64,000 bases of DNA from Paramecium tetraurelia (GCA_000165425.1 CT868036.1:124001-188000); one strand, 5' to 3'. Shown: positions 45,106 to 62,903, counted from the first letter of the stretch. Numbers and translations: made by a program. Notes: generated by a model from the sequence alone, not told the origin.

Positions 45106-45897
45106 TTAATATAAAAAGTTCAATAAAAATAAAAAATACTTGACTAATTTGATTGATACATTTAAAATTACCTTTAAACAATGAAAACACTTGCTTTCAT
45201 TTCAAGATACAATTCCAATGTTGATTTGTAATGCTACCTATTATTAAGGGAGAAGATTTGTAAGTTGTATATAATTATTAAAAATAAAATAAAGTAAAAA
45301 TGAATTCTTTTAGTTTTTAATTGATAATCTAAAATCCATTATGAAAGCATTCTTAAATATAAGTATGTTTTATGTTTTAAATTTAATTATAATCATACAA
45401 TTGAATGTACTGTTCTTTTTATTTAAATTAATGACAAAAAGCCATATCAACAGTTGCTATAAATCAATATGAAGTTAAATATGTGTCTTTGGAATTTTTA
45501 TTGAATTTAATTGCAAGAGAAGTAAGATATTAATATATTAAAGATAAATAATCTTAAAGTAACTTTCTAGAAGCTAAAAAATACAAAAGGACAAAATGTT
45601 TAAACTAGTTTCTAAGTTAAAGTGGCAATTATTTTGATAAATTAATTTAGATCTTTACTTAGTAATTGTAAGCTTAAATCTATGAATAGATAAATTTAGC
45701 ATGCAAGATATTGACTAAGGCTAGCTATTTTTTATAGGAAGTTGTTGGTAGTTTGTTGTAGATATATACATAATACGATATTTGGCAAAGTGAAAGTGCT
45801 ATTTATAAAGGAATTAAAATGATTATAAAAATAATTAAAAAACGGGTTTTTTTAGTCTTCTGCTTGGATGTGATAATAATTCATTAATAATTTTAAT

Positions 45898-47061
45898 ATG
45901 GCTAGAATCATTCCTGTATTGACACTTATCTTGGCAGTGGCAACTGCTAGAGTAGCAAAGAGTGAAAGTCCAAAAGAAGTGTTGGCATAAATCAACAAAG
46001 ATTCATTTGGTAATTCTGTATTATCTGTCCTCCAACTCTAATTGGCAACAGGAGGACCAGTCGGAGAAATCTAAATCCTTTTAAACAACATTGCCTCATA
46101 ACTCAATGGAGATTAAAAGAAAGCTGACAAAGTTCACGAAAGTGACACAGTTGCCTTCGAGAAGGTATAGTTAAATATTACAATGTTAGATCATTGCTGA
46201 TTTAGAATAAGAAATCGCTTATCACTCAAACTTAAATCGTTGCTCTTTCAAACTTGAGAGATTCAACAACTGAAGCATTAGGAGAAGCTGAAGTTGAAGT
46301 TAGAGTTGTCACATCTGATATTGCCAATAACGAAAAGAGCTTCGCCGACGAATCTGCCACAAGACAATCATAACACGATACATGGGTTAGAAAGGATGCA
46401 GAACACGTTGACTAAATAGACGCCATTGATGAAGCTTCTAAGATCGTTTAACACTTATAAGCAGGTGTTGCATTTGCTCAACTCAAGAGCAGATTCGAGA
46501 AAGTCTAAGCTAAATTAATGGAAAGCAAACACGCTCTCTTCAAAGTATTAAATAACCATATGAATAGCCACTCATCAATGCTTTGACATAATTAGCCTCA
46601 AAGGTTGATAACAAGAGCATCATCAAAATCTTAGAACTCTTGGCTTAAATCAGATAATAATTGGTTGCCAGCAGAGCATCACTCCTTGCAACAGAAGAGA
46701 AATAAGCTGCCAACTGGGAAGTCTAAAGTGGTCACTTGACAGAGGAACACAAGAGATTAGCTGAGAGAAAGGCATTCTTAGAAAACTCAATTGTTCAATT
46801 CAAAGTCACCATCTAAGAAGCTGTTGAAGACTTGGAAGATTAAACTGTAAAATCATCAATTAAATGTAGTTATTCCTTGAAGATGCTGAAGACTCATTGG
46901 CTATCTAAGAAAGATGGGCTGCCGAATAAGAATCATAATATGAAGCTTAAACCTTTGAAAGAGAATAATAATTGGAAGTCGTTGAAAGATTATAAGAAGT
47001 TCTTACTCAAAAGGTGAGTGCTGCCTCAGAATTCCTTTAAGTTAGAGAAGAGGTCTTTTGA
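45898..47061 (+). CDS. TMP4: Trichocyst matrix protein T4 precursor; one apparent +1 frameshift near 46225
   Basis: MARIIPVLTLILAVATARVAKSESPKEVLAQINKDSFGNSVLSVLQLQLATGGPVGEIQ...AASEFLQVREEVF* matches the Paramecium T4 family as I recall it. Three introns. Confidence 0.93.
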
Positions 47062-50246: not shown

Positions 50247-50507
50247 TGTAATTTTAGTAATATAAAATTTTATTGATATTTAGTAAGAAATTCTGGCTTT
50301 TTGAAAGAAATTTATTATTAATATAAATACTCAAGCTACTATTCTTATTTTGATAATTTTTTTCGATTTAATGTACATTTCTTCAAAAATAATATGATTT
50401 ATAAAAATTCACTTGGTTTGATTAATTTAATCATGAAAAAGTTCTTGCTTTCTCAAAGTTACCTATTAAATATTAATTTGCTTTATTAATTGTTCTTTAT
50501 TTATTTT

Positions 50508-50867
50508 ATGATATATATAATAGGCTTATTAGTTGTCGGAATAATTTGGGGAATTACAAATCCTTTTATGGAATCTGGAGTAGGTAATAAATAGTAAGAC
50601 CTATTTGGATTTAAATCTTTTATTCAAACAATACTTAATTACAAGTTTATTATTCCTTTTGGAATAAATCAAAGTGCATCAATATTTTATTACTACCTTT
50701 TGGGTCATACTCCATTAAGTCTAGGACCAGTTATAGTGAATTGTGTTAATTCAGCAACAACTGTAATCACAGAATCTCGTTTAAAGAAATAGTAATTGAA
50801 GTAAAAGACTTGGATTGGGTTAATTTTAATTTTTATTGGAACCTATTTGGTTTGCTCAAGCAAGTGA
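50508..50867 (+). CDS. TMEM234: TMEM234-family small membrane protein
   Basis: LLVVGIIWGITNPFM, YKFIIPFGINQSASIFYYYLLG, LSLGPVIVN. Confidence 0.88.
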
Positions 50868-52007
50868 AAATGATTATAGGCATAAAATATACACATAGTG
50901 TTTATGGAATTTATATTTTTTTTCATTCAATTCTTTTTTAATTCCTTTGATTGGCAAATATCAAATAATTTAACTTTACTATTATCAACCAAATTATCAT
51001 ATTGATATATTAATGTATTTACATTACTTATTTCAGATAAATTAAGTTCTATATAAACTATTATTAAATGTTAAATCTGAAACTCTGATTTTCAAAAGAA
51101 CACCTTTTTAGAGAATGTGGATAATCATAGATCTTACTTTATTGAATTTTTTTTTCATTAATAATTTAAATTAAGAATAATAAGAAACTAATGACTCATT
51201 ATAATGTCGAATTATAAAGGAGAATCAGTACCTTTTGTAATTCTAAAACAAACTATTTCAATAATAAAAATTATATTAAAAATTGAAGATATAAGAATTC
51301 GAATTTAATTAGATTACAATTAATATAATCAAATAATGTTTAAATAGTATTTTTCTTGTAGTTAATCGAGCTGAATTCTGGTTAATGCTCTAAACGATCC
51401 TAAGTTCAAATACTGAAAATTTATTATCAACTTTCAATCAATTATTGTTATATACTGAAATATTTTTAACAATTAATCTTATTTTTTAATTATCTTGTGC
51501 AAATATCCTTATTCTTTGATTTAAAAATAAATGTTATTTCCTTTATGAAGTTTAATTGAGAAATAGGTTTTATACAAGTAAAAAAACATTATTTGTTTAG
51601 CGAATTGAAATGAGAAAATATCAAGTTGACAAATCTAAACCATATAATTTTAATAAGGAAAACGAAAATTTAAATTGTAATAATATTTGCTTGTATTACA
51701 TTGAAAATTTTTAGAGAAGAGGACCTAATATTACTTAAAGTATTTTTTGACAAATGGTGGGTACTTGGTAATAATCTATTTAAATATCGTAAAAGAATAT
51801 TGAGATTCATCTTCATCGACAGATAACTGCGACTATCGATTTACATATTTAAAAAAAACATAAATTTTAAATATTCTTAAGTTGCTGTATTTAAAATAAA
51901 AAGATGAGTTATTTGGTTAAAATTAATTAATAAATATGTTTAGTAGGATTTAAAATTTTTTATATTAGATAGAAAAATTATGGTTTTATTAATGTTATTT
52001 GAATAAA

Positions 52008-53458
52008 TCATTCCAATTTTTTATTAGAATCATCCTATTTAATCTTATTTATGTCTTCTTTTAGTTTTTAAGACCAGTAATCTTATGATTGTGGCTACTA
52101 TTCGTCTACTAAAGCACTGTCAATATGGTTTTATTGTACAAATTCAGTACCATTCATTTAATGTTAAATGTTTTTTTTAATAGTTGAAACATCATTGGCA
52201 ATTTTTTACATCCATTCTTCATTTGATCTAGCTCTTCCATCAGCAACAACATTCTCCTCGACGAAAGCAATGTGGTCAGCATCTAATTATGATTTGATAT
52301 TTTGTTTAATTGTTGAAACATCATTGGCAATCTTTTACATCCATTCTTCATTTGATCTAGCTCTTCCATCAGCAACAACATTCTCCTCAACGAAAGCAAT
52401 ATGATCAGCATCTAATTATGATTTGATGTTCATTTTAATGGTAGCAACATCGTTAGCGATCTTTTACATCCATTCTTCGTTTGATCTAGCTCTTCCATCA
52501 GCAACAACATTCTCTTCAACAAAAGCAATGTGGTCAGCATCTAATTAAGACTTGATATTTTGTTTAATTGTTGAAACATCATTAGCAATCTTTTACATCC
52601 ATTCTTCATTTGATCTAGCTCTTCCATCAGCTACAACATTCTCCTCAACAAAAGCAATATGATCAGCATCTAATTATGATTTGATGTTTTGTTTAATTGT
52701 TGAAACATCATTAGCAATCTTTTACATCCATTCTTCGTTTGATCTAGCTCTTCCATCAGCAACAACATTCTCTTCAACAAAAGCAATATGATCAGCATCT
52801 AATTAGGATTTGATATTTTGTTTAATGGTAGCAACATCATTAGCGATCTTTTACATCCATTCTTCGTTTGATCTAGCTCTTCCATCAGCAACAACATTCT
52901 CCTCAACAAAAGCAATATGATCAGCATCTAATTATGATTTGATGTTCATTTTAATGGTAGCAACATCGTTAGCGATCTTTTGCATCCATTCTTCGTTTGA
53001 TCTAGCTCTTCCATCAGCTACAACATTTTCTTCTAATAATGTTTAGTGTTTTTTTTTATCTTCTTAATTATGAATAATAATTTACTTTATTTTTCAACAT
53101 TTGTATGTTTTTTAGTCTTCTTTTCATTTCCTTTTATTTACATTTCTTCAATCAATTGAATTTCTTCTCTGTCAACCTCTTTAATTGATTCTTCTTTTAC
53201 ATTCTTTTTATTTTATTTTTTAGAGCTTCCTTTTTATAATAAGCTGTCCTTTTCAAATTACCCTACTTAATTCTCTTCATTGTTTTCTAAATCACCTACT
53301 AAGTTCTTTTATTATTCATTTGATTTCTTAATGTTTTGTTTATTTTCTGCTAAAATTGATTACAACCCTTCCTAGCTTTTTATATTATTGTGGTGCCTTC
53401 TAATATTTGAACCCTATAACGATGTGATTAAAAATAAGACAAGAATAGCTTTAAGCAT
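52008..53458 (-). CDS. Secreted tandem-repeat polyprotein (7 x 43 aa)
   Basis: Signal peptide MLKAILVLFLITSLQG, charged pro-region, 43-aa repeats, degenerate last unit ending SNKKLE*. Two 23-nt introns. Confidence 0.85.
52168..53035 (-). repeat. Coding tandem repeat, 129-bp unit, about 6.7 copies
   Basis: GATCTAGCTCTTCCATCAGC recurs at 52225, 52354, 52483, 52612, 52741, 52870 and 52999 (129-bp period). Differences between units are mostly synonymous. Confidence 0.97.
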
Positions 53459-55172
53459 TTTTTTTATCGTTTTTGATTATTTTTGAAAATCATGATCACA
53501 CAATTCTTTTTATACTACATTTCGATGAACTAACAGATTAATTAATCGACTAGAATTAAAAAATTTTTAAATTTTTAAATCAATTACACCTTCCTTAGTT
53601 AGAATATCTCAGGTCTACTTTTATGTATAATGGTAATCTGACATGATAACTTTTTGGGAATAATTTGTTTCTTATCATAAAATGTTTCTATGTTTGTTAA
53701 TACATTGAACTTATCATTTTAAATTCATCAAGTGGCTTTTAGTTTTTGTCATCTAATTTTGTTATCATGAAGAGGAGATCAATTTATTATGTGTTATGTT
53801 CTAGTTTTCAATATCAATGTAACATTCATAACAAATTTTATGAATTATCATCTAAGCTTCAAATAAGTCCTTAAGATCATTTTACTTTAATTATTTGAAT
53901 AGTTGAAATGATTTTCTCTAACTATTACATATGCATCACGATGTTGCAAATAAAGGAAGAATATTTTTTACAGTGTACTTTACAATAGAAGATTTGTTAA
54001 TTTTATTACTGAGAATCCATCAAATGAATGTAGAGATGGTTTATAAAAAGCATTTTAAGACGATATTATAGCATTAAAACCATTACAGAGTAGGATTCTA
54101 ATTTTCAAGATTATTAGTAGTTGAGAAAAAATAATATATAGAAAAATATCATTTAGTAATAAGCTTAGTTTAGGATTGCTAAGAAGTGGTCATTAACTAC
54201 TTCCAAAGGATATCAAGATGAAAATCAAGAATTAACAATTTATTTCCTATTTAATTAAAATTAAAATATAATTAAATTTATAGAATAAATCCATAATTTT
54301 AATAAGAAAGAGAATGGAAGGTACATGTTGGTAATTGATATCAATTTTTTCAATTTTCTTACAGAAGAGTTTAGTTTCTATTAATTTATATGGATGATTT
54401 ATTAGTTTCAAAATATTGCTTTTTAATAAAAATAATTACTTCAGAAATGAGAAATACTTAATTCCTTAATTTATTAAATACCATCTTGCGACCTTAAATG
54501 AATAAACTAAACTTATATTCATTTATATAGGTTAAAATGATTTTTTTTTCTTTGCAAATATTATCAGAATTATTAGTGTGAGAGTTTAATTATTAAATTA
54601 AAAAGCGGTAAATTTTATTAATAAAATTTTAAATTCTGATTCCATCTAATTTTTATTATATCGTTTTATTACTATCAATTAAATAGAAAAATCTTATAAA
54701 GTACATTCAAAAACTGATGTGTGTAGGTATTCAAATAAAATTTAAAGATAACTTATACTTTAAATATTCTATCGATATATGTTTGAATATCTAACTCATA
54801 ATGACTGCTTAAAAATATATTTAAAACCTAACTTAAACTCTAAGTCCTTAATCTAAATATCAAAAGAAGTTCAAACTCCTTTTGATTTTCTTCTTCATTT
54901 TCGGTGACAGGCTCAATAGTTAACTGGTAATTAATAATTTAGGTTTAATTTTATTTTGTAATATCAAATAACATTAAGACAAATATTGAAAATAATGTTA
55001 TAATAACCAAAACCAAAATAATTTGTAAATTCTCAAGTCGAGAGCTCCAGTTAGTAAAAATATATTTAAAAAAATCTAGAAGATCATAAAACTAAACTTT
55101 ATAATCATAAAATAATAAAATGGCTCTTTGTTGAGAAAACAATTGGTAAATAAAAGGATTTAACTAAAATAA

Positions 55173-55984
55173 TCATTCCAATTCTTGCATCATATCTTAA
55201 CGAATTTATACTTCCATATTCTATTTATTCTTATCTTAGAGTTTGAATATTTTTTCAATTACAGTGATTTCAGTTGATGTTGTATCAAGACCTAATGGGA
55301 TTGATTTAATTGATACCACAAAAAGCTGCAATATCATTAACTACTAGCCCTGATGCAATAATGTCACTTCCTCTATTAACAGTTCCGGCACATAATGGAA
55401 TTTGCAGTAAATTGGCCAATTCATCTAATTCTTCAACTGTTGTTAATGGATGAACAAGTCCTCCTTAGTTATTAAAGCAACAATAGGTTCCAACTAAGAC
55501 TTATTATGCTACAGTAGTTCTGAAAACTTCAACTCCAAGAGTGTCAGCAATAATTTCCTCAGTTTCTTTATCCAAATCTGAGTGAATTAATGCAACATAG
55601 TCATTGCAAGCAACGCAATTCCCTAATGCTGATAATTTCTCTTCTACTCTTTTAACCTACATATGTTGATTAATTTTATTACTTTAACTTCATCAGGTAA
55701 TGAATTTCTAATTTATTTCAATTCTTAATCAGTGCAAGTATTTGGAACGAGAAGTCCATTTTTGTTTCCTAAATTTTTATATTTCAAATACCTGCTGTCA
55801 ACCTTCCAATAATTCTTGTACCTCCTATTGAACAATGAATTACTGGCATGCTCAATCCAAGTTCAGATTCAAACACAGAATAAAAGTTTTCACTTCCTCC
55901 TAGAGCAACTAAGCAATAAGAATTAGTAAGTTTGGAAAAAACACCAATATCATTGGAGTTTTCAAATTAACATCTATTGGCCAT
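55173..55984 (-). CDS. EIF6: Eukaryotic translation initiation factor 6
   Basis: [57 protein letters not shown]. Two introns. Confidence 0.96.
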
Positions 55985-56094
55985 AATGTGCTTAATAAAT
56001 ATTCTTTATTAAAATAACTAAAATCAATAAAAAGTGAACTGAATTTCACAGTGGGTATTATAAAAATTCTAGTTGGTCATATAATAAATTATTA

Positions 56095-59000
56095 ATGAAT
56101 TCAATTATTACCATTTTAACTACTTTACTTATTAAATCTTTAGCTTAAGTCATAATAGTTTATGATTAGAAGAATGACACAATTTAATAAACAGCTAATA
56201 CTATTACTTTCAATATTACTGCAACTTTTCCAACATCCTCAGATGTATAAGTGGATGTCTAATTGCCAAGTCAAATTATTGGCCAAGAAAACATTGTATG
56301 TGGTGTAACAGGTTTGACCAATGGAGCTTGTAATTTAGTTTACAGTAAATTTATAATTACTTTCAAATCTGCAACACCTACTTTCTAAATTATTTTTATC
56401 AATGTAAACAATCCGATAACTACATATACTGATCAAGTTCAATTAAATGCTTCAGTAATTGCTACAAAATCAGTGATCTTCACAAAGCTTGTACAACTGA
56501 AATTTCAGTTCAAAAATGTGCCTTTATCCATAATTTAACCACCTACAACCTACATTGCAGCTCCTTTAACAATAACTATAGATGGGACTTCTATTACATT
56601 CCCGACATAGTCTTAAATAATAATAACTACAAATGGTGTAATTGATAATTTAGTTAAATTGACTGGCATAGTGTTTGAATCAATAAAACTTTAAGATAGC
56701 ACAATAATCATCAATAATGTTTAACTACCATCTAATGCAAAAAGTACTTTTAGCATTTCCAAATTTATTATTAAATCTAATGAACCAATAAACTATAAAG
56801 TAGAAATATTAGACTCTAACAATGGATAAATTACCATGTTTTAAACTTCTCAAACAGTTTAAACAATCAATAATAACTATGATTACACATTGTCTGCAGA
56901 AAATTAAGTAGTTGGAATGCCAACTTCAATTAAAATCATTTTATGTAATCTAGATGAATAGAGTAAGTTTATATTTACCTCTTCAATTGCAAAACTTAAC
57001 TATGTTACTTCTTATGAATCTAGTTGTCATAGCACATTGATTTAATAATTTACTAATCCATTTTCGTTGAATTCCATTAGCTTTGATTTGTAGGTTACTC
57101 TAAATAATTTTAATAGCATCAAAAGATCTATTTCGTACACTCCAATTAAGGATTAAATATCAATGACTCTGACTTAGAACACAACTATAATGTTAAATTA
57201 TGCACTGGTTATATTATCTTTGTAATTGAATTAACAATATAGCAACTTTTTTATAGAATTGGCAAACTCCTACACAACAGATAGTTGTAAAATTTAGGAT
57301 GTAGATTGTTCTTAAATGAATAACATTTACAAATCTAATCTTTTGGAATAAAAGCTAAATAAAGTGATAATAAAACTGGAGATTTTATTACCTGGTTGCG
57401 ATTCTTATTATTTTTAGGCTAAACTCATCTATTAAAATTAAGAATTGGCCACATCTAATTAAATAACTCCATTATTAGTTAAATATAAATTAACATCAAC
57501 ATTAAGTACATCTTCATTTAATATCGGAGAAGAATCAGTTTTCACTATAAATGGTTTAGATTCAAAATAAATTACAAAATATTATGTCTCAACGACTTTA
57601 ACTGATTTAAAATGTTAAGACTGTATATAAAATGAAAATTAGTTATAATACGGTTAGGTGAACAGTATTCAATTTTCGGCCAATAATTTAAAAAATGTAA
57701 AGCCTTATACCATAACAATAATAGCATACAACGATTAATGTTTAATTGCAGAATAAATTTTTAGATAGTAAGCAATTGCACAAAAATTATAATTATCGGT
57801 AATTACTGATAATAATTATCAATAAGCCCAAGGTAATTGGCAAATAACCATTTCTCCTGATATACAGGATAAAGGTATAATGAAAACCCCATTTATTCTG
57901 CCAAATAATTAGGAAAATAAAATCAATGCCACCTCTATGTATATCAATTAGACAAAGTATACTTTAAATATGATTAATTGGTACTTTGATAAAGAAGAGA
58001 ATTATTGGGAAGTAGGATATTATAGAGAAGGATATTTATATGCATATGGCAATTTGACCTTGCCTTAATTGAATATTATGGATTTTAAGAATTTGAAGAT
58101 CACTAAACAAAATGCATAAATTAATGAAACAGATAAGGTCATTATAACTTTCGATACTTATTTCGATATCCCTGTAGATGGATAATTACAATTAGATGTA
58201 ACTGACGTGTAATTGAGCAATCTTACATTAAATGGAGTAGAAATCAATAATTAAGTTGTAATTCCTAAAGGAAATTAAGTATTAAATTTTTAAATATCGT
58301 TTATGAATCCAATTAGTAACTATTCAAAACAATTTACTCTTACTTCGTTTAATGAATTAGGAAGGATTTTATAAAAATCAAATTTTCAATATGCTTTTAA
58401 TTATGGATGCAGTATTGAATAATGTGGAGTTTGTAATTTAACTGATTGTATTTCTTGCAAATCCACATTTACATTAGTCAATAATACTTGTTAGTTAATC
58501 TGTGAAGAAAATCAGAATATTGTAAATAATACATGTGTAAATAATTAAAATAATAACACCCACAATGTAAACGATACTAATACAACAACTCCGAATAAGA
58601 CAGGCGACATAACAATTCAGCACGATGAAGATTCTTTTGTTTTTACTCCTCCAATAATTAGCCCAATCGTAGTTCTTATATACTTATTTGCTTTATCTAG
58701 GAAATGTTGGAGTAGTGAATCAGAAACTTTTATAATATTTTATTCTTTAGCATCTGTAATGGAACACATTATCCATATATTTCTTTTCATCTATTTCTTT
58801 GTTACTCTAGATTTGATTTATGGGTTTTGCATGATTTCAGTAATTGTGCTGCATTTTTCATCTCAGATTTACATAGTTTTCATGAATTTGTTTAAGATAG
58901 ATCCAGAGTATATTGGAATCCGCTAATAAAATAATTGGTTAAAGTTGCTCCATATTATTTCACTTACTTTTTGTGGAAGATTACTATTGTTATTAATAAG

Positions 59001-59262
59001 CAAATTTGACCAATCTTATGTTTGGTCTACTCCTTGGACCTTTAAAATATCTGTGCTTCAAAGGTTGTCTAACTATTTGAAATTTCAAATAATAGCTTAG
59101 ATTGGTGTATTGACTTTGGTAATATTGGCCATACTATAGAAATTATTCTTACTCTACATTGAGATTCTTAGTTTTCAAATTATACAAACCGTTGTTACAC
59201 TCTATACTTTCAACCATTTGAGAAATCAAAAAAATTAAGAAATTAGATACACATATGTATGA
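56095..59262 (+). CDS. Large surface protein: signal peptide, beta-rich ectodomain, furin-like Cys cluster, 6-7 C-terminal TM segments
   Basis: Intronless 1055-aa frame; CSIEQCGVCNLTDCISCKSTFTLVNNTC followed by multiple hydrophobic segments. Confidence 0.85.
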
Positions 59263-59377
59263 TTAAACATAGTTTTATATAAATTTATTACAGTTATTAT
59301 TTGATGATCCGAATATATTATATGATAAAAACATAAATCTTACTTTATATGTTATCTTATTCTTGATAATTATTAAA

Positions 59378-61358: not shown

Positions 61359-62903
61359 TCATTTTTTTGATTTATCTCTAGAACCACTGTGATATGATTA
61401 TTTTTTGTCATATTTCTAATTTTTATATTCTTTTCTGCTCTTTAGTTTGTCCTCTTAGAATTTTTATTTATAACTACTTCTCCATTTCTTTTATTTTTTT
61501 TCTCTTTTAGAACATGAATATTTTTTTTCTTTACTTTATTTGTTATTAAGCATTTCCTTTTTTTTTGATGAGGAAATAACAGACTTATTACTAGAATTGC
61601 TAGAACTATTTGAACTATTAGAGCTACTTGAACTACTTGAACTGCTGGAGCTGCTTCTAGAATATTTTCGTTTTTTGAATTAATTCTTATTATTTTTATT
61701 TAATAGTGTATTTGAAAGAAGATTATAACATAATTATTTTACAATTGGATGAGTATATTTATTATCACCTTTGATTCCTGGTATCTATCCATTATTAATT
61801 TTATCAAATAACACTTATGTGGTCTGAAGGATCTGAACAATATTGCTTAGATTATTAGTATTCTTAGCATAATCTTCTTATTTAGTTGTCTCTTTATCTT
61901 CCTATTTAGTTGTTTCTTTATCCTCTTATTTAGATGTTTCTTTATCTTCTTATTTAGATATTTCTTTTACTTCTTGTTTAGACTAACAAAAGTCAGAAGT
62001 CTTGATTTGATTATTCTGAATTTATTCATCTTTTTTTACAGTTTCTTCTTAATCTCTAAAAATTTCATCAATATCCCATTCATCAGCTGTACTTGATTAT
62101 TATTTAACTTCAACTTGCATTTGTCCAATGGGAAAGGTTTGACAGATGGCTTTTGCAATGCTATGTTGAATTTTGAATCCCTCATACAATTCAAAAGATG
62201 GAAAATCATAAATAGTTTTGATGGATGACTATCTTCTTAGCCATTGAATTTTAAAGGTCTTAAGTTTAGGGAATTATTAATCATATACGACAAGTTGATT
62301 GATCATTTTAGCACAACCAACAAATTCATCATTATTAATAAAAATCAAAATAACATTTGCAGGGATATTGCATTCTTGCGCTAATTTAAAGTACGTGATT
62401 TCTTTGACTGTCCAAACTGAGAATCTTTTGGCATGAGCTAAATTATTTTTATTTGATTTCATGAGGTAGAAGACAGAATTGAATGTAATGAATTCATTAC
62501 AGGGAGGCTCTGGTACAAATGTTTGAAATGATTCTGTGTATTTATAATGACATTGGGAATTGATATTGAAGAAACATTTGGATTTCTGACAAAATATATT
62601 CTCACAAGTGGAGCAGATGAATTTTTAACAACAAGGAGTTGAAATTTCAAAATCTCTAGAGAAACAGGAAAGACATATATTTCTTCTTTTTGGAACTCGA
62701 ACTAATATTATCATTTGCTTGTTTCTAATTTCATCACTAATATTCAAAATCTTTTCTTCATAAAGCATTTGGATATCGTCTTTCTTGGATGTGAACATTT
62801 ATTCAATTTTGACTCTTAGGTCTCTTACTTAGATTTTGATTCCTTAAATTGGTATAGTTTAGACTTCTGAGCTGTTTTCCCATTTAAAAGTTATTGAATT
62901 CAT
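61359..62903 (-). CDS. DWNN (ubiquitin-like) + RING + YTH domain protein with Ser/Lys/Arg-rich tail (RBBP6/Mpe1-like YTH fusion)
   Basis: Intronless 514-aa frame: MNSITFKW...IILVRVP; CLSC...PCCQKFICSTC...C; FYLMKSNKNNLAHAKRFSVWT...VILIF...FVGCAKM...FKIQWL. Confidence 0.8.
61875..61985 (-). repeat. Short coding tandem repeat, 24-bp unit (KQEDKET[T/S]), about 4.5 copies
   Basis: SKQEVKEI SKQEDKET SKQEDKET TKQEDKET TKQED within the YTH-fusion gene. Confidence 0.8.

Follow-up and report, generated by a model that had tools for sequence, protein, structure and literature searches.

The cargo known from ciliate secretory granules is of two kinds, lattice proteins that are processed and tip proteins that are not (PMC3824020, PMC4142616), and the activities of granule contents after release are described as poorly understood (PMC4142616). 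In Tetrahymena, the proteases CTH1-3 group with aspartyl proteases of apicomplexans, processing of every Grl proprotein depends on CTH3, and a cathepsin C and a carboxypeptidase are co-regulated (PMC4142616). For the sites of ciliate TMP and Grl proproteins, the available part of that paper gives conserved motifs only, and it states that ciliates have no prohormone-convertase homolog (PMC4142616). PMIX, PMX and TgASP3 cut SF*h[QED] between the Phe and the hydrophobic residue (PMC13637054); IALE and SSIE sites are also described (PMC9352755), and rhoptry proteins carry S-phi-X-E, although the ASP3 study could discern no clear consensus among the sites it had itself examined (PMC5595437). Subcellular proteomics has outlined a trichocyst cluster of 206 proteins (bioRxiv 10.1101/2025.04.24.650466). 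The literature searched, in which older Paramecium work that may describe the junction motif considered below is little covered, contained no ciliate repeat-peptide precursor, and the available portions of four further papers (PMC13096750, PMC13739732, PMC9159632, PMC9670195) held nothing bearing on the gene analysed here.

That gene lies in a stretch of 64,000 nucleotides of Paramecium tetraurelia DNA (GCA_000165425.1 CT868036.1:124001-188000), referred to as the window. The feature is real; it probably belongs to the trichocyst pathway and probably encodes a multi-peptide precursor, a type familiar from fungi and animals. From its sequence, the product is read, with rather more confidence than doubt, as a trichocyst-pathway polyprotein that a granule aspartyl protease would cut within AFVE, between Phe and Val, to free eight acidic helical peptides of 41-43 residues.

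Gene, transcript and repeat units

The genes of the window use ciliate code 6 and contain tiny introns, in DNA that is AT-rich; taken with the TMP gene at 45898, this would fit a macronuclear genome of Paramecium. The target gene runs from 53458 to 52008 on the minus strand and encodes a product of 475 aa (about 53 kDa). Its first exon (53086..53458, aa 1-124) begins close to the point at which RNA coverage stops, near 53460-53468, and its second (52008..53062) is an open reading frame that includes the TGA stop. A preliminary description of this DNA had not mentioned the 23-nt intron between these exons (53063..53085), whose removal from the donor at 53085 restores the frame and is needed for 475 intact codons. 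The intron is supported by 13 raw reads that join 53086 to 53062, their unaligned ends at 53086 agreeing with exon 2 sequence, and by 10/10 reads at 53063; one RNA contig uses an alternative acceptor, giving an intron of 26 nt (53060-53085) and leaving the frame unchanged. Where RNA reads were mapped (53010-56010 only), raw-read depth over the 5' part of the gene was 83-146 in the orientation of minus-strand RNA, compared with at most 0.56 in the opposite one. The gene is transcribed and spliced. RNA contig depth relative to the neighbouring gene spreads 150-fold between runs and, as a poor measure, carries no weight here.

The N-terminus resembles TMP signal peptides and passes a hydropathy filter, the basis for the signal peptide predicted at about aa 1-16 (53411..53458, minus strand). 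It is followed by a charged pro-region (aa 17-133; 53037..53410, minus strand). As reported earlier, SLLQ, QLIE and TLLE are all present in the 475-aa product. SLLQ (53234..53245, minus strand) fits a loose form of the junction motif and is a candidate maturase site; were it cut, the pro-region would fall into a 57-aa part with a net charge of -1 and a 60-aa part with a net charge of +7.

The remainder of the product consists of repeat units; a tandem array with a period of 129 nt, 6.6 copies and 92% matches lies at 52171-53027. Seven 43-aa repeats and a divergent final unit had been described; the repeats and the DYWSQKLKEDINKIKQ unit are present, but in the assembled sequence only six units are complete, the seventh diverges after 27 codons, and the divergent unit is the eighth. 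Taken in the predicted cut register, the six complete units occupy 52263..53036 (52908-53036, 52779-52907 and 52650-52778 for units 1-3; 52521-52649, 52392-52520 and 52263-52391 for units 4-6), each with 43 aa, an AFVE junction at its end and a net charge of -3. The seventh unit (52140..52262, 41 aa) ends in EFVQ (52134-52145), and the eighth (52011..52139, 43 aa) is 24% identical. Within it the pattern W-x-Q-K-h-x-x-D-h-x-x-I-K persists (52038-52076): of the helix it keeps W, Q, K, D, I and K, and the linker is not retained. That the polar Q, K, D and K are kept in so divergent a unit suggests a binding surface.

The peptide sequence of the units is under purifying selection. Among the 19 codon columns that vary between units, 17 vary only synonymously, and synonymous changes make up about 21 of the 24, where 20.5% would be expected (binomial p 4e-12, or 1e-9 if the count is taken as 19/24); across units 1-6, 2/43 protein columns vary. 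The earlier statement that differences are mostly synonymous therefore stands, except in its inclusion of TAG among the Gln codons: units 1-7 use CAA and TAA, and TAG encodes Gln only in the tail and pro-region of the gene. Each of the 21 pairs of units differs at two or more sites, and the array is therefore not a simple assembly duplication. Three unit types (A/M, A/Q and S/Q) alternate in a mosaic order that suggests exchange between copies.

Elsewhere in the window, short tandem repeats with periods of 9, 27 and 24 nt occupy 61589-61982, within a minus-strand frame that contains a Ser run and charged repeats.

Junctions and their predicted cleavage

The TMP sequences used for comparison are 45 loci (L117-L161) collected with the T4 exon of the window, representing about five subfamilies with identities of 29-100%. 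Where the acidic first half borders on the basic linker, 44 of these loci carry [AST][FL][AVI][QE], in variants such as AFAQ, SFAQ, SFVQ, TFAE, SFIQ and SLAQ, and the single exception looks frameshifted. The target has this conserved motif as AFVE, which occurs six times in the array, whereas the strict motif has a background of 8 in 21,522 residues and a chance of 1.6-2.5% per unit (2.5% of shuffled units). A looser form stands in register at both diverged flanks, as EFVQ and as the TLLE ahead of unit 1 (53031..53042, minus strand), where HQTLLEEN aligns with HIAFVEEN, and SLLQ provides one further instance in the pro-region. The proposal of an alveolate-type maturation motif is partly supported: AFVE and TLLE match TMP junctions, but QLIE has no fit to the TMP motif.

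Two other T4 motifs fared less well. The N-terminal SVLQ was rejected as a conserved motif, its strict form not being retained across TMP subfamilies, and the C-terminal EFLQ was limited to the T4 subfamily among the 33/45 loci mapped. The labels TMP and T4, for the gene of the window at 45898, and eIF6 are working labels, in part taken from the preliminary description; Pfam returned no TMP name. This T4 gene has a one-base frameshift early in exon 2 (at about 46225), either an assembly error or the mark of a pseudogene, and apparent frameshifts occur in L149 and in some further TMP loci as well.

AFVE resembles the plasmepsin IX/X/ASP3 consensus SF*h[QED], matching it at three of four positions with Ala in place of Ser. 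By analogy with that consensus, the cut is predicted to fall inside the motif, as AF/VE, and not after it; the TMP junction motif is itself a putative cut site. GRAR, previously proposed as a basic processing site, is not supported in that role. The units contain no KR, RR or RxxR and a search of the organism's own genome for the convertase P-domain (PF01483) gave 0 candidates, a miss that is not proof for this domain or for an organism-encoded kexin or convertase; together these make GRAR unlikely as a convertase site, in agreement with the available part of PMC4142616.

In the favoured scheme the signal peptide would route the precursor, made together with the TMPs and granule proteases, into the ER. 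In the maturing trichocyst, a pepsin-family protease of the CTH3 type would then split the pair of hydrophobic residues in each junction (TL/LE, AF/VE six times and EF/VQ), removing the partly basic pro-region and releasing eight acidic peptides. Cathepsin C and a carboxypeptidase may afterwards shorten these down to their helical core. The predicted peptides have 43, 43, 43, 43, 43, 43, 41 and 43 residues, a net charge of -2 or -3 and masses of about 4.7-5.1 kDa, and the combination of acidic products with a basic pro-piece repeats the layout around a TMP junction. Through repetition, each transcript would supply several doses of a single peptide.

The core WMQKIANDVATIKQNIKSQL reads as an amphipathic helix, as described earlier, with a narrow Ile/Val stripe in heptad spacing, a moment of 0.45-0.50 and a mean hydrophobicity near 0. 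A low-confidence model of three units, built from a single sequence, predicts separate helices that do not pack together (mean pLDDT 52, pTM 0.21), and in it the helix runs through AFVE at two junctions. This last feature, which could hide the site, is among the points in favour of a different reading, namely that the chain is trichocyst cargo that stays uncut, or loses only its pro-region, and that a string of eight helices cross-links or spaces the matrix, tip or sheath. The promoter element and signal peptide fit such a protein equally well, unit length is held at 41-43 aa, and unprocessed granule cargo is known in Grt1p and Igr1p (PMC3824020). Against this, the motif is kept at every junction, including the two at which the DNA has diverged, in a form that fits the TMP and plasmepsin consensus, and the absence of predicted packing between units argues weakly in the same direction. 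An uncut string of helices is considered unlikely.

Promoter element and candidate maturases

Immediately upstream of the target gene, 16 nt before its ATG, lies the element AAAAACGA (53467..53474, minus strand), the reverse complement of YCGTTTTT. Its CGTTTT core was first picked out by K-mer counting on TMP upstream regions, and YCGTTTT/AAAACGR is found within 80 nt of the ATG in all 40 TMP upstream regions extracted; with one of the remaining five loci carrying it, one lacking it and three not recovered, the total is 41/42. Among AT-rich windows of 80 nt the background is 50/2729 (1.8%), a count that includes the TMP promoters. The element also precedes 6/6 cathepsin C starts found (7 loci) and 13/23 aspartyl-protease starts found, mostly at -11 to -33, the latter from 30 loci of which 7 gave no start, and with two of the ten element-negative starts probably false. 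Overall it occurs in either orientation, 11-67 nt before the ATG. The literature searched, which covers little of the older Paramecium work that may describe it, contained no TMP promoter element. YCGTTTT/AAAACGR is a candidate mark of a trichocyst-biogenesis regulon, and by association it would tie the target to the TMPs and to candidate maturases. Of the three options raised earlier for the peptide (extrusome cargo, a signalling peptide or a defence peptide), extrusome cargo is now the best, because the target, TMPs and candidate maturases have this element in common. It also lies at 45839-45845 of the window. The TMP gene L144 lacks it, unlike the closely related paralog L145, and the pair forms a natural test of what the element does for expression.

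In the orientation of the target, the element lies 12-22 nt ahead of an M-x-K start at 96 places in the genome, all of which were examined; control counts for this pattern equal the test counts and are uninformative. With the target excluded, a signal peptide follows 5/15 crude starts with the element as against 6/101 without it (p 0.005, with paralogs counted although they are not independent); those with both include three TMP relatives, an H-lectin pair and a pair of giant secreted proteins, and with the target included 10/16 element-bearing starts lack a signal peptide. For the opposite orientation, 70/119 matches were examined (the first 30 by contig and 40 chosen for AT-rich spacers, leaving out six known protease loci). 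Of the 26 crude starts there, 16 show a signal peptide, a group to which TMP-like genes and five small proteins that open with SFLEE belong. Protein motifs accompany the element in 29/62 cases against 2/16, a figure that is descriptive, since the loci were selected and several element-less starts are false. Neither the 96 matches nor the 70/119 of the other pattern contained a second repeat precursor.

Among the 13 element-bearing aspartyl proteases, seven (L265, L270, L272, L273, L274, L279 and L283) continue past the signal peptide with SFLE or SFLQ, as ASFLEEQ or GSFLQEK, which is like the self-processing sites of plasmepsin X; these seven are candidate trichocyst maturases. Among solved relatives, it is cathepsin D/E and not plasmepsin X that gives the top scores for element-bearing proteases. 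For two of them plasmepsin X nonetheless ranks above plasmepsins I-IV, compared with one element-less protease that matched plasmepsins I-IV (E 1e-12) and not plasmepsin X, a ranking that offers no more than a hint.

A less probable alternative to trichocyst cargo of either kind is that the protein leaves by another secretory route, be it constitutive, through the food vacuole or to the surface, and that any cutting happens at other sites such as the basic GRAR, with both motifs arising by chance. Taken singly, each motif has a chance of about 2% and was spotted post hoc, some starts of non-secreted products have the element as well, and the singleton status of the target is unlike that of TMP genes. 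On the other side, a single gene with a predicted signal peptide combines two independent motifs, each of about 2%, the units and the genome respectively lack convertase-type sites and a P-domain, and ten of the 23 signal-peptide-like aspartyl-protease starts have no element, which is therefore not a general secretory mark.

More improbable still is that the array serves as a decoy or timing substrate, its eight maturase sites tuning the sequence in which TMPs are processed during trichocyst assembly. The presence of eight motifs on a single chain, an element common to the candidate proteases and the resemblance of HQTLLEEN, before unit 1, to HAELLEEN in the pro-region of the L266 protease (about 498 nt ahead of where its Asp domain matches) would all suit this role. 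A decoy needs only sites, however, and selection spans the whole unit, as the near-invariance of units 1-6 shows, while the eighth unit preserves its helix residues and not its linker.

The element also led to a number of further secreted proteins. Five of them, small proteins with SFLEE after the signal peptide (L298, L299, L303, L327 and L360), have a Cys-bearing stretch that we take to resemble a beta/gamma-crystallin domain, and these are possible trichocyst cargo of the Grt/Igr type. A secreted pair (L198, L228) has an H-type lectin domain (E 2e-15) and SFLQ near the C-terminus. Two giant secreted proteins (L258 and L259, more than 2,200 aa in L259) have Ser-rich and charged repeats, after which aromatic-rich domains recur that have no Pfam match, and two very acidic ones of about 500-600 aa (L333, L361) are, on our assumption, chromogranin-like in composition. 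TMP-like genes that the T4 search had missed were likewise found via the element: L164, L195 and L229, with TMP profile scores of 12-15 bits, and L177, L186, L208, L304, L321, L337 and L345.

Singleton status, possible roles and comparison with known systems

The target gene is single-copy in its own genome: searches of 72.1 Mb in 697 contigs by DNA, by C-terminal protein and by N-terminal protein returned the target locus only, and a unit profile run against 801 kb of this DNA gave nothing above threshold. The paralogous blocks C61 (about 85-90% DNA identity to the window), C45 and C678 (about 80%) keep the T4 and kinesin neighbours, and the target gene is absent from all three by profile search. 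The C61 sister block is without most of a 9-kb interval, 50300-59300 (compared with L009:701-4468), which it lost or never had; the gene at 55130-55980 is missing on C61 and kept on C45 and C678.

Beyond the genome, a word-index protein search (73-233, 192-613 and 614-2000 aa) found no homolog, and three alternative ORFs are absent from the protein collection; such misses are weak, in that the target protein itself was not returned although that of its neighbour is present. A phmmer search of 1.84 billion representatives produced 5 matches, all unrelated repeat or long proteins whose scores are sums over 4-9 short stretches. A 27-place helix pattern, run against the organism's own genome, matched 8 times in the gene and 6 times elsewhere, against 5 for a control, none of them in a similar context. 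Metagenome patterns gave 0 and then 82 stretches, and none of the 80 loci among the matches listed was like the unit beyond the pattern itself. Although 22 Pfam families matched the unit, none had a stretch that passed alone, and DUF7693 and the other matches were rejected as artefacts of summing over repeats; sequences from the PDB gave one match, at E 0.51. In these Pfam and solved-structure searches the repeat matched no known structural repeat family. Within the collections searched the target is thus an orphan, a weak conclusion where sister species are concerned.

Membership of the TMP family by homology to its helical halves or pro-helix was not found. The unit scores 4.4 bits against the TMP profile, a value reached by 14/200 shuffles, and -0.3 bits in a second comparison (16/300 shuffles), whereas distant TMP relatives score 12-15 bits in the same profile. 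An origin from a TMP helix or pro-helix (QLDADH vs EIDADN) was rejected as not significant.

The lack of homologs in protein collections, metagenomes and the organism's own genome, and the failure of protein searches to return the target, might suggest a minisatellite or an artefact of assembly that codes for no functional protein; this reading is already largely refuted and extremely improbable, given spliced stranded RNA, an intact 475-codon frame, the excess of synonymous changes, and 19/24 runs, among those listed, that hold at least half of the sampled words.

For the polyprotein as favoured, several jobs may be considered. The singleton status of the target, absent from three blocks that keep T4, is unlike that of core matrix genes, and genes that change after exocytosis, 432 of which are induced in the recovery series, keep paralogs at 68% compared with 61% genome-wide (PMC3091696); because of this status, an accessory or effector reading is favoured over a core lattice one. 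The most likely job, put forward tentatively, is that of an accessory component whose three-heptad helix would bind to, or co-assemble with, the helical matrix. Next comes activity outside the cell after discharge, as a deterrent or signal, which is doubtful; equally doubtful is the wider notion of a discharged peptide payload carried beside the crystalline matrix and acting on predators, prey or neighbouring cells. Cationic membrane-lytic peptides combine a net positive charge with a broad hydrophobic face. The unit, by comparison, is acidic (net charge -3, pI 4.75, GRAVY about -0.6), and a cationic lytic peptide, and with it that form of the defence-peptide option raised earlier, is therefore unlikely.

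A precursor of short repeated peptides, if confirmed as such, would constitute a third type of ciliate granule cargo. The defined 43-mer is open to synthesis and assay, and eight near-identical sites make a clean reporter for the trichocyst maturase, one that would test whether ciliates and apicomplexans have a common SF*h[QE] maturation code. The promoter element, for its part, names candidate Paramecium maturases (a subset of the aspartyl proteases, and cathepsin C) as well as further cargo genes. Should the payload reading prove true, ciliates would have in this gene an equivalent of the repeat-peptide precursors of fungi and animals, one that relies on the alveolate signal for aspartyl maturases present in apicomplexan rhoptry and microneme proteins, and YCGTTTT would list the rest of its regulon.

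The described systems are each approached by the target in some respects and not in others. The Tetrahymena Grt/Igr granule-tip family provides a precedent for non-lattice cargo of the same type of organelle, but the target is without the beta/gamma-crystallin end of these unprocessed proteins (PMC3824020). With the TMPs (T1/T2/T4) and Tetrahymena Grl proteins it has in common a predicted signal peptide and, as predicted for it, acidic helical products and a basic piece that is removed (PMC4142616, PMC3091696), and with those of Paramecium also the junction motif [AST][FL][AVI][QE] and the promoter element. TMPs, however, give two large products and are encoded by 176 annotated genes (PMC3091696), whereas the target is single-copy, is predicted to give eight peptides of 41-43 aa and has a unit with no significant match to the TMP profile. 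The substrates of PMIX, PMX and ASP3 likewise present a small residue, Phe, a hydrophobic residue and Glu in proproteins of alveolate secretory organelles (PMC13637054, PMC5595437, PMC9352755); they undergo loss of a pro-domain or a few cuts, none being seen in the available portions of these papers as a tandem array of one peptide, and the P2 residue of the target is Ala, Thr or Glu, not the Ser of their sites. Closest in overall logic are the fungal Kex2-processed repeat proteins (KEPs), of the alpha-factor and ustiloxin type (PMC6339444, PMC7329392), which have an ER signal peptide and at least three tandem, near-identical cores of less than 100 aa, are often species-specific and convert one precursor into many copies of one peptide, as is proposed here. 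The fungal analogy drawn in the preliminary description holds for the tandem cores and would extend to the predicted signal peptide, the six full 43-aa units and two variants lying within the KEP range of three or more tandem repeats of 8-100 aa, but it failed the test for Kex2 sites: by inspection, no KR, KK, RK or RR lies between units 1-6, and the definition in the available part of PMC7329392 requires them. In their place the target has a hydrophobic predicted site, AF/VE, a predicted enzyme of the pepsin family, a regulated extrusome as its predicted route and a ciliate as its host.
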